NCBI RefSeq assembly: GCF_000016745.1
Contig: NC_009483.1
Span: forward strand, 3,690,001-3,722,000
Length of the DNA: 32,000 nt
Direction of reading: 5' to 3'
Source of the DNA: Geotalea uraniireducens Rf4
Lineage (GTDB): Bacteria; Desulfobacterota; Desulfuromonadia; Geobacterales; Geobacteraceae
Under the pieces are notes generated by a model that searched no databases, had not been told where the DNA came from, and worked only from the letters and a program-made list of their open reading frames with translations. The position numbers and the translations under genes were made by a program. Of this stretch, positions 8,279 to 28,641 are shown in pieces. Within the stretch, counting starts at the first letter, position 1. Each line of letters opens with the position of its first letter.

Positions 8279-8305
8279 GCGAGGGGGTAGCACCCCTCGC
8301 TTTCT
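8279..8305 (+). terminator. Rho-independent terminator after the outer-membrane protein gene
   Basis: The stem is GCGAGGGG (8279-8286) paired with CCCCTCGC (8293-8300). The loop is 6 nt and is followed by TTTCT. Confidence 0.6.
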
Positions 8306-8394
8306 CACGATATATTTAAAGGTATTACGGCATGGTGCCGAATATATAAAATGAATCGCGGTTCAACAATCTCAACAAGAAAAAGGAGCAGCAG

Positions 8395-8721: not shown

Positions 8722-8760
8722 GTGGAATAGTTTGTTCTCTTTCAACACTATAATTTAAAT

Positions 8761-8793
8761 CGCTGTAGTTCGAACAATTGCAGCGTTTTTCTT
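8761..8793 (+). terminator. Rho-independent terminator after the small secreted protein gene
   Basis: CGCTG (8761-8765) pairs with CAGCG (8781-8785). Five inner pairs (two of them G-U) surround a 5-nt loop. The tail is TTTTTCTTT. Confidence 0.55.
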
Positions 8794-8868
8794 TACCGCA
8801 CATATCATTGTATTTGAATATTTATATATAATACAATTTTTACCAAACTCTATTTAACGAGGTCACCC

Positions 8869-11869: not shown

Positions 11870-12407
11870 AAAAGTCTTCCTGTGTCTTCTCGTGAATCTG
11901 TTCCGCCAGCCGACGGCATATCTCCCTGACAGCGGCATCTTCGCTGTTTTGCTGTAAGGCAAGGTTCGAGTTTGCCGGATAGTCCTGACTCCCGGAAAGC
12001 TCCCCCTTCCAGAGAACCTTCCCGCTCTGCCTGTCGGACAAGGTCGCAACGACCTTGATGGTCAAACGGTACTCCCTTATCTTGTCGGCGGCAGTATATG
12101 AAACAGGGGTAACCGCATAGGAAAGAACCGCGCCGCTCAGGACAAGCCGAGCAGCGGCTTCGTCCACGGCCTTCCCCCCGCTGCGCCTGGCAAACTCGTC
12201 GACCAGGTTTGAAGTAAGGACGGTTTCCAGTCCGGGATGGTAACTCTTGTTGGCAAAGACAGGAATATGAACCCCGTCCTTCCCCCCGACAGGCGAACCA
12301 GCCACACTTCCGACATGGTGATAACCGCAACCGTTCAGAGCAATACCGACAATCATCAAAAGCCAGAAGGCAAAAAACCTGTGCAAACCAGTAGTCCCCT
12401 TATTCAT
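11868..12407 (-). CDS. lptE: LPS-assembly lipoprotein LptE (RlpB)
   Basis: The lipoprotein signal contains the lipobox LNGC ([27 protein letters not shown]). The size is about 180 aa. Its start overlaps the leuS stop (TAATG at 12405-12409). The position between leuS and holA is canonical. Confidence 0.8.
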   Translation of the reverse strand: MNKGTTGLHRFFAFWLLMIVGIALNGCGYHHVGSVAGSPVGGKDGVHIPVFANKSYHPGLETVLTSNLVDEFARRSGGKAVDEAAARLVLSGAVLSYAVTPVSYTAADKIREYRLTIKVVATLSDRQSGKVLWKGELSGSQDYPANSNLALQQNSEDAAVREICRRLAEQIHEKTQEDF

Positions 12408-14881
12408 TAACCTACAACGATGTTAACCAGCTTGCCGGGAACATAGACAATCTTCTTTACACTCTTCCCTTCAATAAACGGCTTCACCCGCTCGTCGGCA
12501 AGGGCGGCGCCTTTTACGTCATCTTCCGAAGCGGTAACGGCAACGGTCAGCTTCCCGCGCAGCTTGCCATTAACCTGAACAACGACCAGCAGCTCTTCAT
12601 CAATTGCCGCAGCTGAATCAAATGCCGGCCAGCCTGCCTGCTCCAGGCTTTTATTGTTACCGAGCTGGGCCCACAGCTCTTCGGTGAAATGGGGAACAAA
12701 GGGGGCAAGCAGCATCACTACCGATTCGATTGCCTCCTTGAGCACCGGTGCATTTTGCGGACTGTTTTTCGGCTCAAACGACTGGATGGTATTGACCAGT
12801 TCCATTGTGGCAGCTATGGCCGTGTTGAAGTGGAACCGTTCCTCGATATCTTCCGTCACCTTCCTGATGGTCTTGTGCACCTGGCGGCGCAACCCCTTCC
12901 CTTCGTTGGTCAACCCGGCAGGATCGAGAGCTCCCGCACCGCCGATGATGGGCAGGGTATCGTAGACCAGTTTCCATACACGGTTGAGAAAACGGAAACT
13001 GCCGTCAACCCCCTGATCGCTCCAGTCCAGGTCCTTTTCCGGCGGCGCAGCAAAGAGAGAGAAGAGTCGGGCCGTGTCAGCACCGTATTTATCGATAAGG
13101 GCGTTGGGGTCGACCACATTCCCCTTCGACTTGCTCATCTTCGCCCCATCCTTGATCACCATCCCCTGGGTGAGAAGGTTGGTGAACGGCTCGTCGATGT
13201 CGCAATAGCCCAGATCGCGCAATACCTTGGTGAAGAAGCGCGCATAGAGCAGGTGCATGACCGCATGCTCGATTCCGCCGATATACTGGTCCACCGACAT
13301 CCAGTATTCGGTCTTCTCCTTGTCCAGCGGCCCGGAAACAAAGTCGGGGCAGCAGTAACGGAGGAAATACCATGAGGATTCCACAAAGGTGTCCATGGTG
13401 TCGGTCTCCCTGCGGGCGGCTTCGCCACACTGGGGACAGGTCGTATTGACGAAGGAATCCACCTTATCCAGTGGATTACCCCCCTCACCGGTAAACGTGG
13501 CGTCCATGGGAAGAACCACCGGCAGATCCGTTTCGGGCACGGGCACCGCTCCGCAAAGGTCGCAGTAAATCATGGGAATAGGGTTCCCCCAGTAGCGTTG
13601 CCGTGAAATCCCCCAGTCACGCAGACGGTAATTGACCGTCTTCTTGCCGATGCCCTCCTTCTCCAGATAATCGGCAATCTGCTCTTTGGCCGCGCCGCTT
13701 TTCAGGCCGTCAAACCTGCCGGAGTTGACCATGATCCCTTCAGCAGTGAAAGCTTCCGCCATCGTCTGCGGGTCCAATGCCTCCCCTTCCGGCTGGATCA
13801 CCACACCCATGGGGATATCGTATTTCCGCGCGAACTCGAAATCGCGCTGGTCATGGGTCGGTACCGCCATAACCGCCCCGGTGCCGTAGTCGGTCAGGAC
13901 AAAATTGGCGAGATAGACCGGCATCCGTCGGTTAGTGACCGGATTTATGCAGTACGAACCGGTAAACACCCCTTCCTTTTCAAAGTCTTCTGCAGTGCGC
14001 CGGATACGATCGGTCTTCTTGACCTTCTCGATAAAAGCCGCTACAGTTGCCATGTTTTCAGGGGTAGTCAACTCCAGTGCCATGGGATGTTCCGGCGCCA
14101 GAGACATGAATGTGGCGCCGAACAGGGTATCCTGACGGGTGGTAAAAACCTTTATCTTGTCCATTTGCCCTTCGATGGGGAAATCTATTTCGCAACCGGT
14201 GCTTCGCCCTATCCAGTTGCGCTGCATGGTCAGGACACGCTCCGGCCAACCGGGGAGCTTGTAGGTGTATTCCAGGAGTTCCTCTGCATAGTCGGTTATC
14301 CTGAATGACCACTGCTCAAGTTCCTTCTGATCCACATTACTGTCGCACCGCCAACAGCAGCCGTCTTCAACCTGTTCATTGGCCAGAACAGTTTCACATT
14401 TGGGGCACCAGTTAACGGAAGATATCTTTTTATAGGCAAGACCCTTTTTATACATCTGCAGGAAAATCAACTGCTCCCATTTGTAGTAGTCCACGTCGCA
14501 GGTCGCAAGTTCCCGATCCCAATCATAGGAAAGGCCCATTTTTTTCAATTGGCCCCGCATATAAGCGATGTTTTCATAGGTCCATTTGGCAGGGTGGCTC
14601 TTGTTCTGGATCGCCGCGTTCTCTGCCGGCATGCCGAAGGCATCCCACCCCATGGGATGAAGGACATTAAAGCCTTTCATCCTTTTGAACCGGGCTATCA
14701 CGTCGCCGATCGAGTAGTTGCGCACATGCCCCATGTGAATGCGCCCCGAAGGATAGGGAAACATTTCCAGAAGATAATACTTTTCCCTCGTCTTATCCTC
14801 GGTTGCCCTGAAGCTCTTATTGGCTTCCCAGAATTTCTGCCATTTCTCCTCAACCCTGCTCGGGAGATACTTTTCTTCCAC
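12407..14881 (-). CDS. leuS: Leucyl-tRNA synthetase
   Basis: The 824-aa ORF has the class-I HIGH-type motif [11 protein letters not shown], the KMSKS motif AKMSKSKGN, and a CP1 editing insert. The start codon is GTG at 14881, 5 nt after GGAGG. Confidence 0.97.
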
Positions 14882-14921
14882 ATCAACCTCCTGGCCCGGT
14901 CATGCCGGGGCAATAGAACTG

Positions 14922-14948
14922 AAAAAAAGCATTTCAGCACGGAAACGC
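14922..14948 (-). terminator. Intrinsic terminator-like hairpin between the 27-haem cytochrome gene and leuS
   Basis: The minus-strand RNA reads GCGUUUC-CGUGCU-GAAAUGC followed by U7. The stem is 7 bp including one G-U. It sits 140 nt downstream of the cytochrome stop and only 41 nt upstream of the leuS start. Confidence 0.5.
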
Positions 14949-15088
14949 AGCAAACACGGTGAAAATCACAGGGTCAGGCTTATATGCTTCGATAGCGAGC
15001 GGCATTGCCTGAATCCACCGACATCCTGATTTTTCTTTGCGTTCTTTGCGGCTTTGCGTGAGTAAATGCTTTCCACTATGATACGTAA

Positions 15089-17308
15089 TTAATTCGGCGG
15101 CATACCTTCCTGGAACTGGGGAATATCGCCGGAGCGGCCACCATGGCACCTGCCGCAGCTACCCTGGTCCTTGACGCTGAAGGCCATTGCAGCCCCGTGA
15201 CAGGCGCCGCACGATTTACCATCTTCCATATCCTTCATCTTATACTGTTTCCTGGCGACACCCGGTGCAATGAGATTGTTGTGGCAGTCACCACAGTTGT
15301 ACCCCTTCGAAATATGCAGTTTGTGACTGAACAAGACACTGCCGGTATTGGCCGGCAGTTCATATTTCACCGCCCTCGTCACGTTGTGACACTTGCTGCA
15401 ACTGCCGGTAACCGCAAAGGCAGTGTTCGATTCGTGACAAGCGCCGCAGGACCGCCCCTTTTCCATGTCGGGCATGGTGTAACGCTTGTTCCCCTCACCC
15501 GGAACGAATAGCTTGGAGTGGCAATCGTTGCAGCGGTAAACACCCAGATGAAACTTGTGGCTGAAGAGCGCTCCCGATTCCTTGAACTGGATCTCTTTAA
15601 CCGGATGGCACTTTTCACAATTTTCTTTTACCGTAAAAGCGGTTTTCGCGTCGTGACATGCGCCGCAGGACTTGCCACCCTCCATATCAGCCATTTTATA
15701 GCGTTTGGCTGCCACACCGGTAGTGAATATACCGTTGTGGCAGTCACCGCACTTGTACATGCCGATATGAAATTTATGGCTGAAGTAGGTGATGCCGGTT
15801 TCGGGAACTTTGAAGGCCACTTCAATGGTCGATTTATGACACTTGTCGCAATCACCCTTGACCGAGAAGCCGGTGCTCCCTTCATGGCAGGCGCCGCACG
15901 ACGCCCCTTTTTCCATATCAACCATCGTACGCCGCTTATTGTCCGGTCCGGCAACAAACAGTTTGCTATGGCAGTCACCACACTTGTACATCTCCAGGTG
16001 CTTTGTGTGACTGAAACGGGCGTCATCCGTAAAGGTGATATCCTTGACAGGGTGGCACTTGCCGCAATTGGCTGCCACGCTGAAAGCTGTCTTCCCCTCA
16101 TGGCAGGCACCGCAGGACTTACCCTTTTCCATCTCGGCCATGGGAAAGCTCTTTCTCGCCACCCCCGTGGTAAAAACCTTGTTGTGACAGTCATCACACT
16201 TGAACATGCCCAGGTGCAGCGAATGGCTGAAGTTCACCGGACCGATATCGGGTATGGTGAAGGTGATATCCTTCGTGCTTTTATGGCATCTGTCGCAACT
16301 GCCGTTGACGGAGAAAGCGACATCACCTTCGTGACAGGCGCCGCATGATTTCAGCTTCGCCATGTCGGCCATGGTATAGCGTTTGCTGTTGACGCCACCG
16401 ACAAAGAGGCCGCTGTGGCAGTCATTGCAGTTGTACATGCCAAGATGGAATTTATGACTGAAAAGCGCATCGCTTTTCTTGAAAGGGATATCCTTGGTAG
16501 TCTTGTGACATTTTGCGCAATCGCCCTTGACTGAAAAACCGGTGCTGCCGTCGTGACAGCCACCGCAAGACCTCCCTTGTTCCATTTCACGCATGGAATA
16601 ACGTTTGCTGTTCGGACCGGCAACAAAAAACTTGCTATGGCAGTCCCCGCATTTGTACATCTCCAGGTGGAATTTATGGCTGAATAAGGCATCGGCGGTG
16701 AACGCAATGTCCTTCACGGTATGACATTTGGTGCAGTTTTCCTTGACGGTAAACGCCGTTTTCCCATCATGGCAGGCACCGCACGACACTCCGCCCGCCA
16801 TCTGCGCCATGGAAACGTGGGGGTTGCCCGGGCCCGGCTTGAACAGCTTGTTGTGACACTCGCCGCACCCGTACATACCAAGATGAAAATTATGGCTGAA
16901 GATCAACGTGCCGAAGTCGGGTATTTCGATGGGAACTTCTTTAACGATGTGACATCTTACACATTCAGTAAGGGCAAAGGCCTTGGTTTTGTTATGGCAG
17001 GCACCGCACGATTTCCCCTTTTCCATTTCCGCCATGGTCACGGGCGGCACCTTCTTGGTGATGGGAAAGATGGTCTTATGGCATACGGTACAATTACTGC
17101 CCAGTTTATTCAGATGGACATCATGGTCAAACACTACCTTACCGGCGTTCTCAGTTTTAAAAGTAACTACCTTGAACTCCTTGGCAAACAACAAAACCGG
17201 AATCATAAGCAGTAACATCAACGGCAGTAAAAAGCGTTTCACAGACTTTTCCCTCTGTTTCCTGAAATTGTGATCTTTATTTCCAAGCACATGTCGGAAA
17301 GACACCAT
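15089..17308 (-). CDS. 27-haem periplasmic cytochrome c made of nine tandem c7-type trihaem domains
   Basis: There are 27 CXXCH motifs, arranged as 9 repeats of three. Each repeat contains F(S/D)HxxH, the first CXXCH, MxxMxxxxSCGxCH and a third CXXCH. A signal-peptide-like h-region (LLPLMLLLMIPVLLFA/KE) is present. The start is ambiguous: either the ATG at 17308, or the GTG at 17242 preceded by GAGGG at good spacing. Confidence 0.95.
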   Translation of the reverse strand: MVSFRHVLGNKDHNFRKQREKSVKRFLLPLMLLLMIPVLLFAKEFKVVTFKTENAGKVVFDHDVHLNKLGSNCTVCHKTIFPITKKVPPVTMAEMEKGKSCGACHNKTKAFALTECVRCHIVKEVPIEIPDFGTLIFSHNFHLGMYGCGECHNKLFKPGPGNPHVSMAQMAGGVSCGACHDGKTAFTVKENCTKCHTVKDIAFTADALFSHKFHLEMYKCGDCHSKFFVAGPNSKRYSMREMEQGRSCGGCHDGSTGFSVKGDCAKCHKTTKDIPFKKSDALFSHKFHLGMYNCNDCHSGLFVGGVNSKRYTMADMAKLKSCGACHEGDVAFSVNGSCDRCHKSTKDITFTIPDIGPVNFSHSLHLGMFKCDDCHNKVFTTGVARKSFPMAEMEKGKSCGACHEGKTAFSVAANCGKCHPVKDITFTDDARFSHTKHLEMYKCGDCHSKLFVAGPDNKRRTMVDMEKGASCGACHEGSTGFSVKGDCDKCHKSTIEVAFKVPETGITYFSHKFHIGMYKCGDCHNGIFTTGVAAKRYKMADMEGGKSCGACHDAKTAFTVKENCEKCHPVKEIQFKESGALFSHKFHLGVYRCNDCHSKLFVPGEGNKRYTMPDMEKGRSCGACHESNTAFAVTGSCSKCHNVTRAVKYELPANTGSVLFSHKLHISKGYNCGDCHNNLIAPGVARKQYKMKDMEDGKSCGACHGAAMAFSVKDQGSCGRCHGGRSGDIPQFQEGMPPN
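15143..17179 (-). repeat. Intragenic tandem array of nine diverged c7-domain repeats, period about 72-81 codons
   Basis: The His residues of the third haem motif fall at aa 120, 196, 268, 342, 419, 491, 568, 641 and 722. Identity at the DNA level is limited to short stretches, for example TTTATGGCTGAA recurring near 15775 and 16674, with one mismatch (TTTATGACTGAA) near 16451. Confidence 0.9.
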
Positions 17309-17339
17309 TACCCTTTGTATGCCTTGCCAGTCTCGATAA

Positions 17340-17717
17340 TCAGGTAATCTTCAACAGTCCCTTTGCCACATCCAGTATTCTGTTCGGCTGGATAGGCTTG
17401 GTGATGTAATCGTTGGCGCCCAGAGCAAGGGCACGCTCCCGGTCCTCCTGCGCCCCCTCGGTGGTGATGACGACGATCGGCGTATCCTTGTAGTTTGCGT
17501 CATTGCGCACCAGACTTACAAGCTTTAAACCATCCATGATCGGCATGTTTATGTCGGTCAGAATGAGGTCGAATCTTTCAGCGGAAAGCTTTTTCAGCCC
17601 ATCGACACCGTCATTGGCTTCCACGATCCGGATGCCTCTCAATCTTTTAAGGGCAAAAGATATGAGTTGCCTCATCGTGGGCGAGTCCTCGACTATCAGG
17701 ATATTATATTGCAACAT
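17340..17717 (-). CDS. cheY: CheY-like single-domain response regulator
   Basis: The 125-aa ORF has the receiver signature IVEDS...LILTDINMP...VITTEG...YITKP. GGAGG sits 7 nt upstream of the ATG. Confidence 0.9.
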   Translation of the reverse strand: MLQYNILIVEDSPTMRQLISFALKRLRGIRIVEANDGVDGLKKLSAERFDLILTDINMPIMDGLKLVSLVRNDANYKDTPIVVITTEGAQEDRERALALGANDYITKPIQPNRILDVAKGLLKIT

Positions 17718-17802: not shown

Positions 17803-18627
17803 TTACTTTGTCAGGAGATCGATGAATCCCTGAATAGTTGAAAGCTTGCGTTCGGAATCATTGTAGAGCCTTGAGCTGAAAATGGCAGTAGCCGCATGTC
17901 CAGCCAACAGGGTGAACAGTTCGTAGTCGACAGCAGCAAACGTCGTTTTTTGCACCAACAGTTTGTAAATCACCAGCACGCCGATCACGTGTTCCTTGAT
18001 CTTGAGCGGGATGCAGACCATGGGTTGATGGAGATCCTGAACATAAGTGCTGACGTTCTCCACAAAGTAATTCTCGCCGGTCTTGGCAACTTCGCCAATA
18101 ATGCCTTTGCCAAGCTTCACATGGGGAATATTGTCCCGGAGAATGCCTTCACAGGCGACAGCCTGAATTTCATTGCTCTTTTCGTCAAGGAGCATGATTG
18201 CGAATTCTTCGGCGCCGATCAGGTTTATGATGATCTCGGTAATTATCTGCAGGACCTCTTTGAAATCGAGGGTGGAATGCAACTGGTAACTGGCAATGTA
18301 GAGGTTTGCCAGGTTGTTGTTTTCTTCCTCGATTTCTATATATCGGGCAGCAAAATCCTGATTTTCCGCCTCCACCTGCTTGATCCGCCCGAGGATCTCA
18401 TCCTTTTCCCGTTCCAGCTCCTCAATTCGCTGAAACAGCTTGCGGTTTTCATCAGTCGAGGCAGGAACCCCCTCCAGGTTGGACTGAGATTCCTCCAGTT
18501 GGATAATCCGATAGCGGAGCCGTTCGTTTTCCCTCATCAACTCCTGGGTAAACTCGGCCCCTTTTTTGAAGACCTGCAAGAACTCTTCAGCCCTTCCATG
18601 AACGCCTTTATCTTCTTCCTTTGACAT
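17803..18627 (-). CDS. Coiled-coil plus GAF-domain protein
   Basis: The N-terminal roughly 110 aa are heptad-rich and charged (ERLRYRIIQLEE..., ELEREKDEILGRIKQVEAENQD...). The C-terminal part has a GAF-like pattern (LIGAEEFAIMLLDE...GKGIIGEVAKTGE...VCIPLK...VIGVLVIY). Confidence 0.8.
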   Translation of the reverse strand: MSKEEDKGVHGRAEEFLQVFKKGAEFTQELMRENERLRYRIIQLEESQSNLEGVPASTDENRKLFQRIEELEREKDEILGRIKQVEAENQDFAARYIEIEEENNNLANLYIASYQLHSTLDFKEVLQIITEIIINLIGAEEFAIMLLDEKSNEIQAVACEGILRDNIPHVKLGKGIIGEVAKTGENYFVENVSTYVQDLHQPMVCIPLKIKEHVIGVLVIYKLLVQKTTFAAVDYELFTLLAGHAATAIFSSRLYNDSERKLSTIQGFIDLLTK

Positions 18628-18650: not shown

Positions 18651-19736
18651 TCAGTCCCTGTTATGTAAAATTCCGCAATGCGAAGCGATTTCATTGGCCA
18701 TCCTGTCGATGGGCGCCACCTTGTCAACCAGCCCGGTGGCTATTGCCTCACGGGGCATGCCAAAAACAACCGCCGATTCTTCAGACTCAGCGAGTATCCT
18801 GGCGCCAGCAGCCTTGGCCGTCTTAACTCCGCGGCTTCCATCATTTCCCATGCCGGTAAGGACCACCGCCAGCAGGCGTGAGCCATAGATTTCAGCACAG
18901 GAAGCAAGCATGGCATCCACGGAAGGTATATATTTATCCGTCGGCGCCGGGTCGACCACCCGGACTATTACTTTCCCATCAAGAGACTGAAGCACCATAT
19001 TTCGGCCCCCCGGAGCAACCAGAACCCTTCCGGGCAAAACGGCATCACCGTCTTTAGCCTCTTTGATCTCAAAACCTGATGTACGATTCAGTCTTTCGGC
19101 AAAAGCCCTGGTAAATCCCGCGGGCATGTGCTGGGAAACCACAACAGCAACCGGCAGCGGCTCTGCGAACGCGGAAAAAATGCTCTGGAGAGCCGGTGGA
19201 CCTCCGGTAGAAGCTCCAATGGCGACAATATCGACTTTGGATTTGACTGTTTTTGCGGTCGGAAACAACGCCGGCTTCTTTTCCTTTTTTGCCTTTGCCT
19301 CCTGGATAAACAATGACTCCCGTCTTTTGATCCCCGCCATATTGAGGTTAAAAACACTCCGCACCTTTTTCTGGAGATCGTCCTGAATTTTCAGAAGTTC
19401 ATCGGATATCGTCCTGGTCGGTTTCGCGATAAAATCAACAGCGCCCAGTTCAAGCGCCTTAAAAACCCGCTCGTCCTCACTCCCGGAACTGATCACGATA
19501 ACCGGCGTAGGACAGCTGCTCATGATGATGCGCAACGTAGTAAAGCCGTCCATTCGGGGCATTTCAAGATCAAGAGTAACGAGATCGGGACTTAGATCGA
19601 TAACCCGCCTGATTCCCTCCTCACCATTGGCAGCGTAGCCTACAACCTCAACCTCCGGCACCTCTTCAAGCATCTTGGTAATAGTACGTCGATTGTAAGC
19701 CGAATCGTCTATGACCACCACCCTCACCTTCTTCAT
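18651..19736 (-). CDS. cheB: Chemotaxis-type protein-glutamate methylesterase (REC plus CheB domain)
   Basis: The receiver domain shows VVVIDDS...LVTLDLEMP. The esterase domain shows [12 protein letters not shown] and HMPAGFT. I moved the start to the ATG at 19736: GGAGG lies 7 nt upstream, and this ATG forms an ATGA overlap with the cheR stop at 19733-19735. The track start at 19760 is over-extended. Confidence 0.93.
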
Positions 19737-20608
19737 GCAAAACCTCCGAATTCCGCACATTCAGGCTTGTGGTAGACCATGTCGTTTTTCAGGTGTTTGA
19801 GAGCAAAGGCAGTAGAAATATTCATCAACGATTCGGAATGGCCGAGGAGAAGATACCCTCCCTCGCGCAATGACTTGTAAAATGATTCCACAACCCTCTT
19901 CTTGGCGATCTGATCGAAATATATGATGACGTTGCGACAGAAAATCACATCCATCTTGCCGAGCAATGCAAGCCGGTTCTGATCAAATAGGTTGAGATGG
20001 CTGATAGTTACAAGCTCCCGGACTTCATCGTTTACTTTGAACATGCCTTCCTGTTCTTGAAAATATCGTTTAATATATATTTCTTCTGTTGATCTGAATG
20101 AAGATTTGCCGTAAGCAGCCTTTCGTGCCTGTTGCAGCACCCTCTGGCTGATATCGGTGCCGATGATTTCCACGCGCCAGCCTTTTATACAACCCATTTC
20201 CAGAAGAAGCATGGCGATCGTGTACGGCTCTTCACCCGTAGAACAGCCAGCACTCCAGATCCGCAATGTGCGATCGCCCCTTTTCGCCTTTACGTTCATC
20301 AACTCGGGAATTATTTCGTCGGTAAATGCCTTCAACTGAAACGCTTCGCGGAAAAAATAGGTCTCGTTGGTGGTCAGGATATCCATTATGTCGGAGAGTT
20401 CCTGATCCCGCTTTCTGTCATATTTCAGAAAATGATAGTAATCCCTGAACGCCGGAAGTTGATGATGGGACAATCTCCGGGCAAGACGTTTTTCCAGCAG
20501 ATACTTGGAGTCGTTATCAAAATATAGACCACAATGTGTATAAATGAGATCCCTGATAAGGCGAAACTCATCATCGGTCATCAGTACTTCAGGTTCAGAG
20601 CAAAACAT
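19733..20608 (-). CDS. cheR: Chemotaxis-type protein-glutamate O-methyltransferase
   Basis: The SAM-binding motif is [20 protein letters not shown], preceded by a CheR N-terminal helical region. Its start overlaps the stop of the upstream HEAT gene (TAATG at 20606-20610). Confidence 0.92.
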
Positions 20609-22632
20609 TAGAAGAACCTATCCATTAATTCCACGATCTGCCCCTTTACCGATTCATCCGACTCGGTTTCCAGGGCCGAACGCAGATATGGCAATGCCTT
20701 CTCACCCATCCGGGCAGCCATTGCCTTAACAAAACTGCTCCTTACATCCCAGTGCGGATGGGACAGAAGTTTGTTCCGGTATGCATGAATCCACCCATCG
20801 CCATTCAGAGAAAGGATGTTGATGGCAGCCTTGACCACTTCTTCATCGTGGTTTTCAAGCGCCCTTTCAACCAATGCGGTCCCCTTGTCTCCGCCGATCT
20901 GGGCAACAGTATCCAGCACGGAGATCAAAACGAGCCCTTCAGCACTCTCAAACAACTCGACAATCGCCGGCAAGGCGGCATCGTTGCGCAGATTACCAAG
21001 GCTCTTCAGTGCTGCGCACTTAACCCAGGGATCGTCATCCTTAAGCGCCAAGAGTAAAGGATCGAGGACGTCATCCCCGCCGATATCCCCGAGAGCGCCT
21101 GCTGCAGCAATACGGACATCAGGATCCTCATCAACCAAAGCCATGACGAGGTGCCCGACGCTCGCCGCCGACTTGAGCTTGGCCAACGAACTGACCGCGG
21201 TTTTGCGTACGGATGCGTCTTCATCCTTGATAAGGAGCGAAAGTTTATCGGTGTCGGAGAGTGCCGTGCAAAGAATCGCCGCATTACGCCTTTTTTCAGA
21301 AACTTCGGAAGAGGCAAGTTTGCCGGTAATTTTTGCTACGGCTACCCTGTCCGCTTCGACAAGGCGATAAAGGGCTTCAATTGCCCCTTCACGGACATCC
21401 GGCTCACTGTCTTCGAGCAGATGGGCGATTTCGTTGATAAACACAACAAGGCCGGTCTTACCCGCAGCCTGCACCGAGGCTTTTCTCAGCCGGGCATTGG
21501 AGTCGAGCAGCCCTTCGCTTAATAGGGAAACGCACCCCTTGTAGCGCAATTCTCCGCATACATAAACGATGAAACAGCGTTCATCGTCATCCGCGGCAGG
21601 ATATGCTTCAACCAGAGATGCTGCTCCGCCCTCCCCCATGGCCTTGAATGCCTGCAAGCAGTGCCTGCGGAGCCTGTCGTCACAGCAGCCGCGAAGCAGA
21701 TGGCCAGACGCACGATCATCCCCGATGATGCCGAGAATTTTGACCAGTGACTCTCTCAAACTGCTCTCGGAAGTTTCAAACGAAGCAAGCAGACCTTCCA
21801 CAAACGGAGTTCCCTTGAACCTCCAGAGCCTCTCATCCACTGCACGTTCAGCGATTTCGGAGGGGAGGCGGTCCCTGAGCGAAACAAGCCCCATCGCCGC
21901 TGCCTCACGGGCATTCTTCACCCTGTCCTTCAATCCCTCCACAAGAAGCGGCACCGCCTCCACATCGCCAATCGCACCGAGACAGTCGTATATCGCCTTT
22001 TTCAGGAGATTTTCCTTGGCAAGCGGTACAATCGCGGCCATAGGCACCGGTTTACCGATTTTGCCGATGGACTCGAGAATGGTGAACCTCAGCCAAACGT
22101 CATTTTTTGCCAAGGCCTGCAAAAGAGCCGGTATCGCCTGCGCATCCCGAATCTTTCCCAGATTTTCTGCAGCTGCAGCACGAACGTTGGCATCGGAGTC
22201 ATCGAGCGCCTTTATCAAATGCGGCACAAAAGCAGGGTCGCAGATGTTCCCCATGATGTCGACAATGAACTTCCGCACATCATGGTCGTCATCCCCCACA
22301 TGACGGCAAAGGGCATGTGTAGCCTGCCGCCCGAGCTTTTCCAGGGATTCCACGGCGGAATTGCGCAGGCCTGCATTTTCCTGGGATCTGAGCATATCGA
22401 TCAGCTTTTCCTCCAGGATTACAGCACCAGTACCGGTAGCAGCGGCCACAAGTATATCTACCGCCTCTTTGCGGACACGCCAGCTTATATCGCCCAGAGC
22501 ACGAAAAAGACTTTCTTCAATCTGGTCAAGGGGATACCCTCCCAGGCCGACCACTGCCAGTCTCCGTTTTTCCTCATCAGGCGAACAGAGTTGTTCAGTA
22601 AGGGTATGCAGTTTTTCCACTACGCGCTCCAA
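20608..22632 (-). CDS. HEAT-repeat (PBS-lyase-type) protein, 674 aa
   Basis: DxDxxVRxxAxxALGxI-like units recur many times, for example DDDHDVRKFIVDIMGNI, DSDANVRAAAAENLGKI, DEDASVRKTAVSSLAKL, DEDPDVRIAAAGALGDI and DDDPWVKCAALKSLGNL. The track start is a TTG at 22632. A GTG at 22620 has a better-spaced GGAG. Confidence 0.85.
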   Translation of the reverse strand: MERVVEKLHTLTEQLCSPDEEKRRLAVVGLGGYPLDQIEESLFRALGDISWRVRKEAVDILVAAATGTGAVILEEKLIDMLRSQENAGLRNSAVESLEKLGRQATHALCRHVGDDDHDVRKFIVDIMGNICDPAFVPHLIKALDDSDANVRAAAAENLGKIRDAQAIPALLQALAKNDVWLRFTILESIGKIGKPVPMAAIVPLAKENLLKKAIYDCLGAIGDVEAVPLLVEGLKDRVKNAREAAAMGLVSLRDRLPSEIAERAVDERLWRFKGTPFVEGLLASFETSESSLRESLVKILGIIGDDRASGHLLRGCCDDRLRRHCLQAFKAMGEGGAASLVEAYPAADDDERCFIVYVCGELRYKGCVSLLSEGLLDSNARLRKASVQAAGKTGLVVFINEIAHLLEDSEPDVREGAIEALYRLVEADRVAVAKITGKLASSEVSEKRRNAAILCTALSDTDKLSLLIKDEDASVRKTAVSSLAKLKSAASVGHLVMALVDEDPDVRIAAAGALGDIGGDDVLDPLLLALKDDDPWVKCAALKSLGNLRNDAALPAIVELFESAEGLVLISVLDTVAQIGGDKGTALVERALENHDEEVVKAAINILSLNGDGWIHAYRNKLLSHPHWDVRSSFVKAMAARMGEKALPYLRSALETESDESVKGQIVELMDRFF

Positions 22633-22659: not shown

Positions 22660-23634
22660 TCACAATCTCAATTCCTGTTTTTTCCTGGCAATTAATTCCT
22701 CGAAAGCATCTTCGAGATAAGATGTATCGTTTCTGATCGACTCAGACACACGGCGCTCGTAAAGAGCCGTCCCTTCCCGTATATCGTCTTCCAACAGTTT
22801 ATAAAAAGTGTTGTTTTTGACACCCTCTTCCACCTTGGTCTGATTGTAAAGGGTGATATCCGAGACGATAATGCGGGCTAGCCGCCGGGCCTTTACATGC
22901 GCATCGGGTAATTGCCGGGGTGCTGTGTATGATACCTGGGGAGTAGTCTCGCGTTCCTCATCCTCCTGAATTTCCTGGCGGACAATCTCCTGGGCGTCGA
23001 TTTCGGTGCTTGAGAGTTGTTGCGGAGCCGCCTGGCCCTCCTCTTGCCGGGAAACCTCTTCAGGGGCTGCAGCCTCAACGGGTTTCTGGCCGGACACCAG
23101 CCGGTATATCATGGAGGACAATGAATCCGGGATATGATGCTTTTCTATATAATCGTCGGCGCCATAGAGTGAATTAGGCGACCGCTTGTACCTCGTCTTA
23201 TCGTAAACAGATGCAATGAGGATAATTTTAACGGCAGCCAACGCCGGATCATTCCTGATTTTTTCACATACCTCAAAGCCGTACATCGAAGGGAGCGCCA
23301 CATCAAGTAAAACCACATCGGGACGCAAACGTTCGACAGCATCAAAGGTTTCCTTCCCGTCATTAAACGTGAAGACCGTAAACGACTCCGGCTCCAGCAC
23401 TTTTTTCACCGCCGTACAAAAGGCTGCGCTTTCATTTGCTATAACGACTTTTATCCCGGCAGTTGCAACAGAAGGAGAAACGGCCGGCCGCGAGGCAGCA
23501 ACCGGGGGAGGGATCTTTCTGGTTACTTTGAAAATCGCACGACATTTACTGCACCGCAGTTTAATGCCTTCTGCACCCACTTTAGTATCGTCGAAACTGA
23601 ATTTTGCCTTACAACTCGGACATACAATCAGCAT
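22660..23634 (-). CDS. Zinc-ribbon (MJ0042-type) plus receiver-domain protein with an uncharacterised C-terminal module
   Basis: The N-terminus is MLIVCPSCKAKFSFDD...LRCSKCRAIFKV, that is CxxC...CxxC. The receiver has an intact acceptor (VVLLDVALP), S in IASV and K in YIEKH, but NE replaces the usual DD pair. An acidic linker follows, then a C-terminal roughly 90-aa helical segment (KARRLARIIVSDITLYN...). Confidence 0.8.
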   Translation of the reverse strand: MLIVCPSCKAKFSFDDTKVGAEGIKLRCSKCRAIFKVTRKIPPPVAASRPAVSPSVATAGIKVVIANESAAFCTAVKKVLEPESFTVFTFNDGKETFDAVERLRPDVVLLDVALPSMYGFEVCEKIRNDPALAAVKIILIASVYDKTRYKRSPNSLYGADDYIEKHHIPDSLSSMIYRLVSGQKPVEAAAPEEVSRQEEGQAAPQQLSSTEIDAQEIVRQEIQEDEERETTPQVSYTAPRQLPDAHVKARRLARIIVSDITLYNQTKVEEGVKNNTFYKLLEDDIREGTALYERRVSESIRNDTSYLEDAFEELIARKKQELRL

Positions 23635-23657: not shown

Positions 23658-24140
23658 TCAGCCATTAACTTCCATGTCGCCGATACTGCCGAGTTCTGAA
23701 GCCTCATGGGCCGTCAGGATAGTGTCTATGTTCAGCAATATGATGAGAGATTCCTTCGCCAGACAGACCCCCACGAGATATTTGGCGCCAATTCCTCCAA
23801 CGACCTGTGGCGGCGGTTTTATGTCTTTGACGGGGATTGTGATAACCTCAGTGACGTTATCCACGACCAACCCGAGAAGCTGCTTCGACACCCTGACGAT
23901 CAGCAGCCTGACCCCGGAATCAAATTCGCGTAGAGGAAGATCAAACCTCTTGCGAAGATCGATAACCGGAAGCACGCTGCCTCGCAGGTTTATCACCCCT
24001 TCAACAAAGGGGGGAGCCTTGGGCAGGCTGGTCAACTTCTGCGGCCTGATGATTTCCCTGATCCGCATGATGTCAACCGCATAGAGGTTTTCACCTATGG
24101 TAAAGCAAGCGACCTGAATTTCATTAATGTCCGAATACAT
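23658..24140 (-). CDS. cheW: CheW coupling protein
   Basis: The CheW-domain pattern is ACFTIGENLYAVDIMRIREIIRPQKLTSLPKAPPFVEGVINLRGSVLPVIDLRKRF. The ATG at 24140 (AAGGGA 5 nt upstream) is preferred over the GTG at 24143. Confidence 0.9.
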   Translation of the reverse strand: MYSDINEIQVACFTIGENLYAVDIMRIREIIRPQKLTSLPKAPPFVEGVINLRGSVLPVIDLRKRFDLPLREFDSGVRLLIVRVSKQLLGLVVDNVTEVITIPVKDIKPPPQVVGGIGAKYLVGVCLAKESLIILLNIDTILTAHEASELGSIGDMEVNG

Positions 24141-24196
24141 CACTATCCCTTATGAGTAAGGATTGAAACATTGATACAGGCCGATCTCCCCGCCTG

Positions 24197-24571
24197 TTAC
24201 TGTTTACCGATCAACCCTTCAATGACTTCCATGACCCTGGCGGATCTGAACGGCTTGGTAATGTAAGCATCCGCGCCAACCTGCCTTCCCCGCTCAACAT
24301 CCTGGTTGCTCTTCTTGGCCGTCAACATTACCACAGGAATACTTTTGGTTTCATTATTTTCCTTGATCCGTTTGCAGACCTCGAAACCATCGATCTCCGG
24401 AAGCATGATGTCCAGAATTACAAGATCAGGCCTGTTCGTCTTGATCTCTTCAAGCGCCGCTCTGCCATCCATAACCCCGGTAACTAAATAGCCTTTCGAA
24501 GTAAGAAGTATGCTTTCCAGTTTTAAAAGACTTTCCTCGTCTTCGACAACGAGAATCTTGTTATTGTTCAT
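24197..24571 (-). CDS. cheY: CheY-like single-domain response regulator
   Basis: The receiver signature is LVVEDEES...LVILDIMLP...VVMLTAK...YITKPF. The track start at 24583 is a TTG. The ATG at 24571 sits 6 nt after GGAG and is preferred. Confidence 0.9.
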   Translation of the reverse strand: MNNNKILVVEDEESLLKLESILLTSKGYLVTGVMDGRAALEEIKTNRPDLVILDIMLPEIDGFEVCKRIKENNETKSIPVVMLTAKKSNQDVERGRQVGADAYITKPFRSARVMEVIEGLIGKQ

Positions 24572-24588
24572 GTTCGTCTCCAAATGTC

Positions 24589-25377
24589 TCAGAAGAGGGT
24601 TACATCCAGAATCTTTTCCATGTTGAGCAGAATGAGCATTCGACCGCTAAACCTGCCTATTCCGTTGACGAAATCCCGATCAATCCCTTCCAGAACAGTC
24701 GGCGGCGGCTCAAGGTCTTTCGAGTCGATCCGTACGACCTGGATTACTTCATCCACCAGTATCCCGCAAAAACCGTTGTCACCGTTCTTGACTACGATTA
24801 TCCTTTCCTTGCCTGACGAGGCCCCACCAACAAGACCAAGCCTGACTCGCATATTGAATATCGGAATGATAATCCCGCGCAAAGAAAGAACCCCGGACAC
24901 AAACGAAGGAACGCGCGGAACTTCGGTCACCTCTCGTGGCTTGATGATCTCCTTGATGTCCATGATATTGAGGGCGTATTCTTCTGTTGCCACCCTGAAG
25001 CATAGAAGCTCCTGGGAATCGCGGTTGTCGACCTCCGTCATCAATGTAGGACCAAGAAATGCATCTTCATCGCAACCGGCTCTTTCACGCCCCTGCAGCA
25101 GGACAGCAAGAGGATCATATGGTGAAGGGGCTGCCTCTTCCACCGCGAGAGAGTGCATGCGGCTCTCCAACGGCAGTGCAAAAGGAGCTTCGAGGGGTTG
25201 TCGACGTGGTTCCATGACGGGCTCGGGAAAGGTTTCAACAGGATCGGGATGCATCCCGACAGGCTTGCTCCCCTTTTCCATCGGCTCGACAGCCTGACGT
25301 ACCGTTTCTACCGGCAAGGCACCCTGTCGTTCGTCCTTTTCCTGCTGCGCTTTTTTTCTGATCTCGGCTAAATTCAT
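24589..25377 (-). CDS. CheW-domain protein with a roughly 110-aa Pro/Glu-rich N-terminal extension
   Basis: The C-terminal CheW domain reads LLCFRVATEEYALNIMDIKEIIKPREVTEVPRVPSFVSGVLSLRGIIIPIFNMRVRLGL. The N-terminal region is low-complexity and acidic/Pro-rich. Confidence 0.85.
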   Translation of the reverse strand: MNLAEIRKKAQQEKDERQGALPVETVRQAVEPMEKGSKPVGMHPDPVETFPEPVMEPRRQPLEAPFALPLESRMHSLAVEEAAPSPYDPLAVLLQGRERAGCDEDAFLGPTLMTEVDNRDSQELLCFRVATEEYALNIMDIKEIIKPREVTEVPRVPSFVSGVLSLRGIIIPIFNMRVRLGLVGGASSGKERIIVVKNGDNGFCGILVDEVIQVVRIDSKDLEPPPTVLEGIDRDFVNGIGRFSGRMLILLNMEKILDVTLF

Positions 25378-25395: not shown

Positions 25396-26196
25396 TTAAA
25401 TGGACAGTTCATCCTTGATTTCTTCTATGATGGAGGCGTCAATCAATGCCGCATCCTTGCCGAAACCGGTAAGAAGGGCATTTGTAGCCACAGCGTTTAT
25501 TTTCCTCGGCACACCGACCGTGATCTCATATATCCGTTGGACCGCATCGGGAGAAAATAGCCCGGCGCCCCCCCCGGCCACCTCCATCCTGAAATCAAGG
25601 TACTCCTGGGTTTCTTCCAGGCTCAGGGGATGAAGATGGTAGTTGATGGCAACACGCTGCCTGAACGGTTCATACAGGGGAGCGGAGATAATCTTGCGCA
25701 GCTCCGGCTGTCCCATGATAACAACACTGAGAAGGTTCCTGTCGTCCAGCTGAAAATTGGTGAGCAGCCTTATTTCGTCAAAGATCTCCCGATCCGGAAT
25801 CAACTGTGCCTCATCTACGACAATCACCGGGCAGCGTCCTTGATCGTGAAAGTGATAAAGCGCCTCGGTTATCTCTCCCAGCAGGCAATCCTTGGCGGTC
25901 GACGGGGTTTCCACGTCCAGATTTGCAGCAATGACACGCAGGAACTCCAGGGCAGTCAGACGCGGATTAAAGATAAAGCAAAAATGGTATGCATCACCCA
26001 TGGTATCCATGAGTGCACGGGAAATAGTTGTTTTGCCGCAGCCGATCTCACCGGTGAGAAGCGCCAATTCCCGTTCTTCGAGCACATACTGGAGCCTTGC
26101 CAGCGCCTCCCGGTGACCGGCACTCATATAGAGAAAACGCGGATCCGGGGTCTTACTGAAAGGCTTCTCATGAAAACCGTAGAACGTCTTGTACAT
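25396..26196 (-). CDS. ExeA/GspA/MshM-like AAA+ ATPase (AAA_22-type), ATPase core only
   Basis: The N-terminus FYGFHEKPFSKTPDPRFLY is typical of ExeA-like proteins. Walker A is GEIGCGKT and Walker B is VIVVDEAQ. At 266 aa it has no C-terminal peptidoglycan-binding region. Its ATG (26196-26194) abuts the cheA TAA stop (26199-26197). Confidence 0.8.
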   Translation of the reverse strand: MYKTFYGFHEKPFSKTPDPRFLYMSAGHREALARLQYVLEERELALLTGEIGCGKTTISRALMDTMGDAYHFCFIFNPRLTALEFLRVIAANLDVETPSTAKDCLLGEITEALYHFHDQGRCPVIVVDEAQLIPDREIFDEIRLLTNFQLDDRNLLSVVIMGQPELRKIISAPLYEPFRQRVAINYHLHPLSLEETQEYLDFRMEVAGGGAGLFSPDAVQRIYEITVGVPRKINAVATNALLTGFGKDAALIDASIIEEIKDELSI

Positions 26197-28212
26197 TTAA
26201 GCCCCGCCCCTGACAGCCTCGTTGATAATTCCACCAACATCGAGCACAAGGATCGTGCGTTGGTCGCCAAGGTCGGCAGCGCCGGAAATCCCTTTGAACC
26301 CCTTGAAGGTTTCACCAATGGATTTAATAACAATATCCTGCTGCCCCAGAAGATCATCCACTACCATGCCGAGGCGCTTTTCCGCTGCACCAACCACGAC
26401 TACATAGAAATTTTCCTGCTGTTCCCCTTGTGTCTCCGTCTCGAAAAATTTGCCGAGGCGAAGTAAAGGCAGCGTATTCTCCCGCAACTGTATGACTTCT
26501 TTCTTTTCCACGGTGCGGACGTCCTTTCGCTCCACCAGAATCGTCTCAAGAACCGACGTAATGGGAAGGGCATAGGTGCGGCCGACCGAAGATATGATCA
26601 GGGCTTTGATGATGGCAAGGGTTATGGGAAGCGTGATGATCATGCTGCTCCCTTCCCCCGGGTAGCTCTCGACATCAACCATGCCGGAAAGCGCTGCAAT
26701 ATTCGTTCTGACCACATCCATGCCGACACCGCGGCCGGAAATCTCGCTCACCTTGTCGCTCGTGGAAAAACCGGGGAGGAATATGAGATCCAACGCTTCC
26801 TTGTCATGGATAGCTTCAATGCTGGGAATAAGTCCCTTTTCCAAAGCCTTGCGCTTCACCTTTTCGATATCTATACCGGCGCCGTCATCCTCCACCTGAA
26901 TGACCACGTGGTTCCCTTTCTGATAGGAAGAGAGCTTTATGACCCCCTTTTCATCCTTTCCGGCCAGGATACGTTTTTCGGGTGTTTCGATGCCGTGATC
27001 AATGGAATTTCGGATGATGTGCATCATCGGATCGGAGATATCTTCAATTATCAGCTTGTCCAGCTCGGTGTCTGCGCCGAACATTTTCAGCTCGACCTTT
27101 TTCCCCTGCTCTCTGGAGATTTTGCGGACGATGCGCGCCATTTTTTCAAAAAGCTGACCAACGGGGATCATGCGGATTTCCATTACTCCCTTCTGCAGTT
27201 CAGTCAGCTTTCGCTCCAAACCTTTGGCAGCCTTGGTCAGTTCTATGGAAGGGGCCGAATAACCGTCCAATCTCATCCGGCCGGCCAGTTGGCTGATTGT
27301 TGAGTGGGAAAGAACCAGTTCTCCGACGATGTTCATGAGCTCGTCGAGTTTGCTGATATCCACACGCACTGTGCGGCTCATGCTCTTTGCCGTCATGGAG
27401 GCTTCCGGGGCCAGGGAAGGCGCCATTTCCTGCATTTCGGCCGGCTGGGAAGGAGACTCCCCACCAAGGAGCATTACCGTTATATTGTCCCGGTCAATCA
27501 GAGCCGTTACTTCTGCGCTGACCTTTTCCGAACCGAATAAAATTTCAAAATTTATGGAGGATTCCAGCCCCCCCCCTGCACTCGGCAGGGTACTGATAAC
27601 CTCTCCCGCGCTTTTCAGGACGTCGGTCAACTCACCCAGATCCTGGTCGAATGTGGCGAGACTGAAGGATGCGAGAATGGAAAAGATCCTGCGCCCCTTT
27701 TTTACGTTCTCAAGAAGCCGGTGCTCTTCATACTCGGTAAGCGAGCCGAGCACTCGTTCAGAGAGCCCGAGTTTTGCCAACGGGGAAACTGATTCCTCTT
27801 TTTGTACCGCGCAGACACAGGAGCTGATACGTGCCACGGCCTGAGAAATGTCATGCAACTGCCGATCGGCAGTTCCGGCGCTCTGGACCAGCGTACCCAG
27901 CAATTCCATGGACTCGAAAAGAACGCTGATGGTGTTCTGGCTGAGCGACACCTTCCCGAGACGCAGTGAGTCGAGCAGGTTTTCCATATTGTGCGACAAT
28001 TCGGCGATATCGGTAAAACCGAACATACCGGCAAGACCCTTCAGGGAATGGGCTCCGCGGAAAATGGAATTAACCAGGTCAGGATTGAAGTCGCCACCGT
28101 CAGCACAGTCACTGAGAGCGACAAGGTCCAGACTCAACTGGTCGATAATCTCCTCAGCTTCTGCCAGAAAATCCTTGGCGGCTTTACCTATGGCATTGTC
28201 AACACCGGTCAT
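26197..28212 (-). CDS. cheA: Chemotaxis-type histidine kinase CheA
   Basis: The Hpt domain has the phospho-His box FRGAHSLKGLAG. A dimerisation region is present. The N-box is HIIRNSIDHGIE, G1 is VEDDGAGID and G2 is GRGVGMDVV. A C-terminal CheW-like P5 domain is present. Confidence 0.96.
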   Translation of the reverse strand: MTGVDNAIGKAAKDFLAEAEEIIDQLSLDLVALSDCADGGDFNPDLVNSIFRGAHSLKGLAGMFGFTDIAELSHNMENLLDSLRLGKVSLSQNTISVLFESMELLGTLVQSAGTADRQLHDISQAVARISSCVCAVQKEESVSPLAKLGLSERVLGSLTEYEEHRLLENVKKGRRIFSILASFSLATFDQDLGELTDVLKSAGEVISTLPSAGGGLESSINFEILFGSEKVSAEVTALIDRDNITVMLLGGESPSQPAEMQEMAPSLAPEASMTAKSMSRTVRVDISKLDELMNIVGELVLSHSTISQLAGRMRLDGYSAPSIELTKAAKGLERKLTELQKGVMEIRMIPVGQLFEKMARIVRKISREQGKKVELKMFGADTELDKLIIEDISDPMMHIIRNSIDHGIETPEKRILAGKDEKGVIKLSSYQKGNHVVIQVEDDGAGIDIEKVKRKALEKGLIPSIEAIHDKEALDLIFLPGFSTSDKVSEISGRGVGMDVVRTNIAALSGMVDVESYPGEGSSMIITLPITLAIIKALIISSVGRTYALPITSVLETILVERKDVRTVEKKEVIQLRENTLPLLRLGKFFETETQGEQQENFYVVVVGAAEKRLGMVVDDLLGQQDIVIKSIGETFKGFKGISGAADLGDQRTILVLDVGGIINEAVRGGA

Positions 28213-28275: not shown

Positions 28276-28641
28276 CTACCCCAGATATGTGCCGATCAGT
28301 TCCTGAAGTTTGAGAGGATCAAAGGGTTTTACCAGGTATTCGTTGGCTCCGAGCGCCAGTCCCTTCTCCAGATCCTTGTCACTGCTTTCAGTGGAGATGA
28401 TAAAGAGTGGAATGTCCTGATAGTTGGGATTGTTTCTCACATAGCTGATCAATTCAAGGCCGTTTATGTCGGGCATGTTTATGTCGGTTATGATAAGATC
28501 CACCTGTTCCCGCGGCAAAAGGCGCAACGCCTCAAAACCGCTGGCAGCCTCAATGATTTCATATTTTTCCAGGGAATCAATGGTTGAAACGAGCAGAGAG
28601 CGCATGGTATTGGAATCTTCGGCTATCAGTATCTTTTTCAC
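28276..28641 (-). CDS. cheY: CheY-like single-domain response regulator
   Basis: The receiver signature is LIAEDSN...LIITDINMP...FIISTES...YLVKPF. The GTG start at 28641 sits 4 nt after GGAGG and overlaps the upstream gene's TGA stop (GTGA). Confidence 0.9.
   Translation of the reverse strand: MKKILIAEDSNTMRSLLVSTIDSLEKYEIIEAASGFEALRLLPREQVDLIITDINMPDINGLELISYVRNNPNYQDIPLFIISTESSDKDLEKGLALGANEYLVKPFDPLKLQELIGTYLG

Follow-up and report, generated by a model that had tools for sequence, protein, structure and literature searches.

A 27-haem c7-type polymer cytochrome between the che40H cluster and leuS in Geotalea uraniireducens, and its absence from some close relatives

In Geobacter sulfurreducens, the c7-type polymer cytochromes GSU2210 (27 haems in nine trihaem domains) and GSU0592 and GSU1996 (12 haems each) have been described as periplasmic 'nanowires of haems' and are presumed to be electron-storage devices (PMC10138318; PMC13591261). 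In the same organism, part of the che40H cluster makes up the Esn network; colonisation of electrodes depends on this network, whereas reduction of Fe(III) oxide does not. EsnB is the CheW protein GSU2220, EsnC is the CheA kinase GSU2222, GSU2221 is an ATPase, and the class-40H chemoreceptor EsnA (GSU1704), which is encoded elsewhere and has a transmembrane domain, interacted with EsnB and EsnC in two-hybrid assays (PMC5585712). Here we analyse a stretch of 32,000 nucleotides (nt) from Geotalea uraniireducens Rf4 (NC_009483.1, positions 3,690,001 to 3,722,000; hereafter the window), in which a gene for a nine-domain c7-type cytochrome lies between a che cluster and leuS. An original prediction, made from the letters of the window alone, had placed this gene at the end of a Che-like operon.

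According to the supplementary tables of Chan et al. 2017, the G. sulfurreducens order includes GSU2206 rpsT, GSU2207 holA, GSU2208 lptE, GSU2209 leuS, GSU2212 cheY40H-4, GSU2217 cheY40H-3, GSU2219 cheY40H-2, GSU2222 cheA40H, GSU2223 cheY40H-1 and GSU2225 der. The whole window follows this GSU2206-2225 region gene for gene, with the cytochrome in the GSU2210 slot. On the minus strand, 19 consecutive co-directional genes with short gaps run from der to holA (10784-31790), in the order der, DUF4388-receiver, cheY, cheA, AAA_22 ATPase, long CheW, cheY, cheW, Zn-ribbon-receiver, HEAT-repeat, cheR, cheB, GAF, cheY, cytochrome, leuS, lptE and holA. The che genes include cheA, cheW, cheB and cheR in the GSU2212-2224 order and no mcp gene. 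They correspond to che cluster 5, of the 'beta-group', in Tran et al. 2008 (PMC2577667), that is, to the che40H/Esn cluster, from which the window cluster does not differ in gene content or order. The arrangement is not new, since GSU2209 leuS, GSU2210 and GSU2212 cheY40H-4 stand in the same order in the published G. sulfurreducens genome. Nonetheless, the published descriptions of the cluster do not discuss a cytochrome downstream of it (PMC2577667, PMC5585712), and in the searchable literature we found no link between GSU2210 and the che genes and nothing that addresses the function of the 27-haem form.

Anatomy and relatives of the cytochrome

The cytochrome open reading frame (ORF), as first called from ATG 17308 (15089..17308, minus strand, 739 amino acids (aa)), contains exactly 27 CXXCH motifs, where about 0.002 would be expected in a random protein of this length by our own arithmetic. 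The variants CX3CH, CX4CH and CXXCK do not occur in it. The protein is built of nine c7-type trihaem domains of 72-75 aa apiece, and both F[SD]HxxH and MxxMxxxxSCGxCH were counted in 9/9 domains; all these counts agree with those made originally. Pfam Cytochrome_C7 (PF14522) matched nine times with E=5e-174 and 565 bits, against a cut-off of 24.8, and NCBIfam TIGR04257 'nanowire_3heme' matched nine times with E=1e-234 and 759 bits, against a cut-off of 40. With tandem domains of this size that score above both curated-model cut-offs, the protein belongs to the c7-type polymer cytochromes. The linkers between the domains measure, in order, 4, 0, 2, 5, 0, 5, 1 and 6 residues, so short that domains 2-3-4, 5-6 and 7-8 are almost fused.

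PpcA-family c7 cytochromes share with these domains the trihaem fold, the haem order I, III, IV and the two distal His in FxHxxH, but they have a single domain and every haem is bis-His. In PpcA, His47 stands four residues before the second CXXCH, whereas no His occurs at this position in the window cytochrome (0/9 domains), as had been noticed from the sequence; in a pairwise alignment with PpcA, a Lys lies opposite His47. Conservation of the ligands was scored over an alignment of 98 nine-domain orthologues. All 27 CXXCH motifs and all 18 His of FxHxxH were invariant, and of the two Met in MxxM the first was invariant in 9/9 domains and the second in 6/9 only. In GSU1996, Met209 and Met287 are axial ligands in domains C and D (PMC10138318), and both align with the first Met when the cytochrome is aligned to the GSU1996 structure 3OV0. 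The predicted Met ligand is this first Met, 9 residues before the second CXXCH, and each domain is predicted to hold two bis-His haems and one His-Met haem, as the original prediction had proposed from the G. sulfurreducens polymers. The number of candidate ligands, 18 distal His and 9 Met for 27 haems, fits this prediction.

The start codon, which had been left open between an ATG and a GTG, is almost certainly GTG 17242, so that the protein has 717 aa. The GTG start gives MKRFLLPLMLLLMIPVLLFA followed by KEF. This is a classic Sec signal peptide, predicted to be cleaved in front of KEF and free of a lipobox Cys, and it is also the hydrophobicity maximum of the protein (2.16 at residue 1, Kyte-Doolittle, 19 residues). 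A GAGGG Shine-Dalgarno sequence lies 8 nt upstream of the GTG. The start GTG-AAA-CG is kept in Geotalea daltonii, Geomobilimonas, Geobacter hydrogenophilus and a groundwater metagenome-assembled genome (MAG), and the G. daltonii orthologue is annotated with 718 aa. Because signal peptide, Shine-Dalgarno sequence, conserved start codons and annotated length all favour the GTG, the ATG 17308 was dropped; comparison of orthologue starts showed that its 22-codon extension is not conserved across genera. The mature protein would have about 697 aa and a computed isoelectric point of 8.7; its computed mass is about 76 kDa without haem and about 93 kDa once all 27 haems are attached, and it is predicted to be Sec-exported, soluble and periplasmic.

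We built an AlphaFold2 model, without haems, on the 98-sequence alignment (mean predicted local distance difference test 81.9, predicted template modelling score (pTM) 0.44). A single domain of the model superposed on 1RWJ, domain C of GSU1996, with a template modelling (TM) score of 0.84 and a root-mean-square deviation (rmsd) of 1.9 Å, and the c7 fold of the individual domain is confirmed at the level of the model. The entire chain, with its pTM of 0.44, gave a TM score of 0.41 and an rmsd of 15.7 Å on the four-domain structure 3OV0 and a TM score of about 0.5 on hexahaem fragments, and the model carries no reliable information on the overall shape, including an extended rod with haem contacts between domains.

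Among solved structures, the best match is the dodecahaem GSU1996 (3OV0, E=3e-94; also 3OUE and 3OUQ). Its domains are of the type seen here, with FxHxxH, MxxMxxxxSCGxCH and a single His-Met haem each, and it is periplasmic with a proposed role in electron storage. Its chain, however, comprises four domains with 12 haems, whereas the window cytochrome has nine domains with 27, and the 12-haem paralogues that we examined do not lie beside the che40H cluster. Among named proteins, 'cytochrome c, 27 heme-binding sites' of G. daltonii FRC-32 is the closest (82% identity), and the orthologue of G. hydrogenophilus (Geobacter sensu stricto) is 62% identical. Judged by synteny and by the named G. daltonii protein, the window cytochrome is the positional orthologue of GSU2210: both have nine trihaem domains and 27 haems (PMC10138318), and both sit between leuS and the che40H cluster, next to cheY40H-4 and downstream of cheA40H and der. 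The difference is that the window cytochrome comes from another, Geotalea-like species. As originally proposed, it is a polymer of the kind known from G. sulfurreducens. The nine-domain architecture recurs in about 100 protein clusters of 700-750 aa from Geobacteraceae and Desulfuromonadaceae. The protein family has already been published, as have its nine-domain member and the His-Met haems; the window adds a well-conserved orthologue, not a new kind of system.

Conservation of the gene order and absence of the cytochrome

We scanned species-representative genomes. The scan took in 600 candidate stretches and gave at least 77 loci, which were annotated by BLAST against the window proteins; ORF starts and gaps were taken from our own scripts, with start codons anchored by alignment, and species missing from the scan (e.g. 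G. sulfurreducens, Geomonas) were not counted as lacking the gene. Wherever a scanned locus contained a 27-haem orthologue (54% identity or more) with enough flanking sequence, the order was che cluster, cytochrome, leuS-lptE-holA. The che cluster directly preceded the cytochrome in 44/44 such loci, and in none of them did the cytochrome occur without the cluster upstream (0/44). The adjacency, which the original prediction had proposed to check in related genomes, is thus conserved well outside this one, and the idea behind it was not refuted. The entire der-to-holA block is syntenic in G. daltonii and many MAGs and, by locus tags, in G. sulfurreducens.

The gene immediately upstream of the cytochrome varies, being cheY3 preceded by the GAF gene, cheY3 without the GAF gene, or cheB directly, the last in a large clade (L019 and L021-L038). 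Between the che genes and the cytochrome the median gap is 42.5 nt (n=44, range -4 to 507), and a terminator-like hairpin lies in it in 5/44 loci only. Since adjacency and short gaps hold whether the last che gene is cheY or cheB, co-transcription is plausible. In the window, the stop codon of cheY3 occupies 17340-17342, 31 nt from the ATG and 97 nt from the GTG; these distances, and the absence of a terminator between cheY3 and the cytochrome by a terminator consensus scan, bear out what had been read from the sequence. The window cytochrome therefore stands on the same strand as the che genes, a short gap away and with no terminator-like site between, as would be expected within an operon.

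The same spacing, however, extends to the other side. The gap from the cytochrome to leuS has a median of 54 nt (n=45, range 20-199) and is mostly free of terminator-like hairpins; in the window it is longer, at 207 nt, and contains a weak hairpin. Because leuS is equally close, the spacing criterion also puts the housekeeping genes leuS-lptE-holA, on the same strand, into the 'operon', and the cytochrome is not clearly its terminal gene, contrary to what had been claimed.

We also searched for other signals at the junction. A consensus scan, which cannot exclude a promoter, found no sigma70 site in the cheY3-cytochrome spacer, and the window-wide counts of sigma70 and terminator consensus matches were close to those of shuffled controls. 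The sigma54 motif was matched 10 times, where chance alone would give about 16 matches, and no match lies in a relevant spacer. An Rfam scan of the whole window returned no family, and hence no riboswitch such as GEMM ahead of the cytochrome. Between genera, the sequence of the spacer is not conserved beyond the ribosome-binding site. As far as sequence scans can tell, the junction carries no recognisable conserved promoter, riboswitch or other regulatory element.

A search with the cluster-specific ATPase of the che cluster gave at least 120 matches; among the matches listed all were at least 72% identical, with no distant taxa. As a reverse test, we took six long contigs that carry this ATPase, picked because they were not among the cytochrome matches. 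In four of them (L084, L085, L087 and L088) the cluster is complete from der to GAF-cheY3 and leuS comes next, with gaps of 171, 61, 76 and 197 nt, respectively, and no cytochrome between; of the other two, L083 carries the cytochrome and L086 is truncated at the end of its contig. The cheY3-leuS gaps of L084 and L085 were checked for a cytochrome remnant and contain none. The window is as similar to L085 (LeuS 85%, CheY3 90% identity) as to G. daltonii. The cytochrome thus does not follow the cluster wherever the cluster occurs, and four relatives that keep the full cluster without it suggest that the che cluster works without the cytochrome. A neighbour-joining tree of AAA22, CheR and CheB splits the loci without the cytochrome between two positions, both of them nested within lineages that have it, suggesting at least two losses.

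Possible reasons for the adjacency

We consider it probable that the cytochrome is a GSU2210-type periplasmic relay which is transcribed by read-through from the che genes and is an accessory passenger of the gene array. By analogy with the four-domain GSU1996, its 27 closely packed haems would form a linear relay that takes electrons from inner-membrane quinol oxidoreductases or PpcA-type carriers and stores or passes on up to 27 of them, as a 'capacitor' or a periplasmic wire; such a role has been proposed for c7 polymers (PMC10138318, PMC13591261). The gene would have been inserted ancestrally between the MCP-less che40H/Esn (beta-group) cluster and leuS and inherited vertically across the family. 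Its transcription would most likely be read-through from the che genes within the long co-directional der-to-holA array, which would account for the short gaps and for the confinement of the cytochrome to this slot. As an accessory passenger it would be dispensable for the chemosensory pathway and would have been lost at least twice in close relatives. This reading builds on the sequence anatomy, the orthology by synteny, the pattern of conservation and loss and the lack of recognisable signals in the gap, all of which are established; a functional tie of the cytochrome to the che cluster is plausible.

Several points weigh against this reading. Haem ligation and electron storage would be carried over from GSU1996, and the inter-domain geometry of the AlphaFold2 model, with its low pTM and its large rmsd to 3OV0, is unreliable. 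Co-transcription with the che genes would follow from spacing and the absence of recognisable signals only, and a spacer of 97 nt here, or of up to 507 nt in L004, could hold an unrecognised promoter. The tree is a neighbour-joining tree without support values, the sample of cytochrome-less loci was deliberately biased towards absence, and, as these loci are metagenome contigs, the 'losses' could be relocations.

A possible but rather unlikely alternative is that the cytochrome gene is independent and separately regulated, from a promoter within the spacer or the 3' end of cheY3, its adjacency to the che genes being merely the inherited order of a stable core block. This idea agrees with a spacer length of 97 nt here and of 53-115 nt in several relatives, with the lack of sequence conservation in the spacer and with the few gaps that have a terminator-like hairpin. 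It also agrees with the synteny of the entire der-to-holA region across the family and the clean natural deletion of the cytochrome, which left the neighbouring genes undisturbed. Yet many orthologue gaps measure -4 to 45 nt, too short for a promoter and a leader, and the window spacer holds neither a sigma70-like nor a sigma54-like site nor an Rfam element.

That the cytochrome is a dedicated partner or output of che40H/Esn, so that storage capacity is made in step with electrode or biofilm signalling, seems to us unlikely. The adjacency survives the turnover of the terminal che genes (GAF and cheY3, cheY3 alone, or cheB) in all 44 loci; in most loci of the cheB-adjacent clade the gap is 18-69 nt; and the dependence is asymmetric, the cluster being found without the cytochrome and the cytochrome never without the cluster. 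In G. sulfurreducens, esnB and esnC of the che cluster are required for growth on electrodes (PMC5585712). In addition, a 15-haem, five-domain c7 polymer is the last gene of an unrelated signalling array in a Desulfuromonadales MAG (L061:24-11254), 48 nt after the previous gene. This co-directional array encodes CheB, CheR, a CheA-receiver protein, a protein with two receiver domains and a GGDEF domain, a receiver-SpoIIE phosphatase, an anti-sigma kinase, a STAS protein and an MshE-type ATPase. Against a functional module, this context is absent from the other 15- or 18-haem loci and remains a single anecdote, and leuS is linked as tightly, so that tight spacing is no sign of shared function here. 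Four close relatives keep the che cluster without the cytochrome, no conserved regulatory element marks the junction, and the main text of PMC5585712 does not name GSU2210 as one of the genes important for growth on electrodes. Myxobacteria, too, have beta-group che clusters (PMC2577667). The proposal that the cytochrome is expressed with, or controlled by, the Che proteins therefore holds in part: the adjacency is conserved and the gap carries no signal, but functional control does not agree with the four cluster-only relatives.

More doubtful still is the view that the che40H/Esn 'electrode-sensing' pathway has the cytochrome as a genuine accessory output, which would lack its own promoter and be made only when the chemosensory operon is transcribed. 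If it were so, the conductive-biofilm programme would set periplasmic charge storage or a periplasm-spanning wire of about 27 nm, a length extrapolated from about 3 nm per domain in GSU1996; lineages without the cytochrome would differ in electron-storage phenotype, and the array of L061 would be a convergent case.

The original prediction had also pointed out that no protein of the operon has a transmembrane segment to link cytoplasm and periplasm. A Kyte-Doolittle 19-residue scan likewise found no convincing transmembrane segment in the proteins of the che cluster, but the missing membrane link is no puzzle, because in G. sulfurreducens EsnA, with its transmembrane domain, is encoded elsewhere.

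Neighbouring genes, other polymers and biological meaning

The coordinates of the cytochrome, its spacers and its neighbours are collected in Table 1.

Table 1. Features of the window around the cytochrome gene, with the evidence for each.
Feature	Coordinates	Strand	Evidence
DUF4388 (PatA_N) + receiver protein	28638..30341	-	profile match; first gene of cluster
cheY1	28276..28641	-	profile match; GSU2223 (cheY40H-1) position
cheA histidine kinase	26197..28212	-	profile match; GSU2222 (esnC, cheA40H) position
AAA_22 / ExeA-like ATPase	25396..26196	-	profile match; GSU2221 position
Long CheW-like scaffold protein	24589..25377	-	GSU2220 (esnB) position
cheY2	24197..24583	-	GSU2219 (cheY40H-2) position
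cheW	23658..24143	-	Pfam
Zn-ribbon + receiver protein	22660..23634	-	Pfam; GSU2217 (cheY40H-3) position
HEAT-repeat protein, NblB/CpcE-type resemblance	20608..22632	-	Pfam, NCBIfam
cheR methyltransferase	19733..20608	-	Pfam
cheB methylesterase with receiver domain	18651..19760	-	Pfam; GSU2214 position
GAF-domain protein, coiled-coil N-terminus	17803..18627	-	Pfam; GSU2213 position
cheY3, stand-alone receiver	17340..17717	-	Pfam Response_reg; GSU2212 (cheY40H-4) position by gene order
cheY3-to-cytochrome spacer, 97 nt	17243..17339	-	GAGGG Shine-Dalgarno 17251-17255; no terminator-like hairpin
27-haem nine-domain c7-type polymer cytochrome	15089..17242	-	motifs, Pfam, NCBIfam, 3OV0 match, AlphaFold2 model
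Sec signal peptide MKRFLLPLMLLLMIPVLLFA	17183..17242	-	hydrophobicity peak; conserved GTG-Lys-Arg start
Cytochrome-to-leuS spacer, 207 nt	14882..15088	-	weak hairpin + U7; short conserved hairpin before leuS
leuS	12407..14881	-	GSU2209 position; then lptE, holA

The first terminator-like site downstream of the cytochrome (14948..14929) begins 140 nt after the stop codon, at the distance given originally, and consists of a weak hairpin followed by a run of seven U. We rejected it as a special element, for the fold of the spacer is unremarkable (z = -1.74) and hairpin and U-run are not kept in L041 or G. daltonii. Immediately upstream of the leuS Shine-Dalgarno sequence lies a second, short hairpin (14895-14910, minus strand; CCCCGG-CATGA-CCGGG), which is conserved in L041 and has a shortened stem (CCCG GATA CGGG) in G. 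daltonii and G. toluenoxydans. A role as leader or translational element of leuS is possible; no T-box or other Rfam family was found at this site.

Some proteins of the che cluster showed further resemblances. The ATPase resembles the XrtA/PEP-CTERM-associated ATPase TIGR03015 (234 bits, below the cut-off of 324.5), which fits an unpublished claim that the che cluster regulates extracellular matrix; GSU2221, at the equivalent position, was needed for electrode growth in transposon sequencing. Residues 58-111 of the DUF4388-receiver protein hold a sub-threshold MshE-related cyclic-di-GMP-binding motif (31.5 bits, cut-off 38). The HEAT-repeat protein (674 aa) has its top similarity to NblB/CpcE-type, bilin-lyase-like proteins (126 bits to NblB, below the cut-off) and is reminiscent of Cpc7, a HEAT protein in the Che7 system of Myxococcus. 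The longest ORF of cheB shares 28 nt with cheR; its real start is probably an internal Met, which would leave a 4-nt overlap typical of translational coupling. Just past rpsT, on the plus strand (6548-10242), the window carries genes for a DUF3373 protein (562 aa) and a 457-aa multihaem cytochrome of the Cytochrome_cB family with a weak c7-like region. DUF3373 and multihaem cytochrome genes also lie on one strand, with a small ORF between them, in G. daltonii (L001:16791-20199).

None of the paralogous polymers (12, 15, 18, 30 or 36 haems) lies beside the che40H cluster, nor does a 27-haem protein of only 42% identity. The divergent polymers (27 haems at 42% identity, 30 and 15 haems) were discarded as context comparators because their neighbourhoods are unrelated; one 30-haem locus (L081) lies among toxin-antitoxin and mobile-element-like genes. 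Six loci of uncultured Desulfuromonadales (L045-L047 and L050-L052) encode c7 polymers of 792-962 aa with 30 and 36 CXXCH motifs in 10 and 12 domains, so 27 haems are not the upper limit of the architecture. In G. hydrogenophilus (L071:5268-12032), a 12-haem paralogue directly follows genes for a multihaem cytochrome and a cytochrome b561-type protein, and a nearby receiver-domain gene on the opposite strand encodes a sigma54-dependent response regulator. The context of this paralogue is respiratory, not chemosensory, and we take the locus to correspond to the cbcBA/GSU0592 region of G. sulfurreducens. A receiver-domain gene is likewise found nearby on the opposite strand at other 12-haem polymer loci (L062, L064, L068, L074, L078 and L079).

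The 27-haem form is the largest described for G. sulfurreducens, and multi-domain c7 cytochromes have been proposed to let Geobacter respire when no external electron acceptor is within reach. The comparative picture is that of a cytochrome which always occupies the same slot, is repeatedly lost, and is linked to leuS as tightly as to the che genes. If its expression were tied to Esn, signalling would be linked to electron-buffering capacity, and the cytochrome would become an engineering target for current-producing biofilms.

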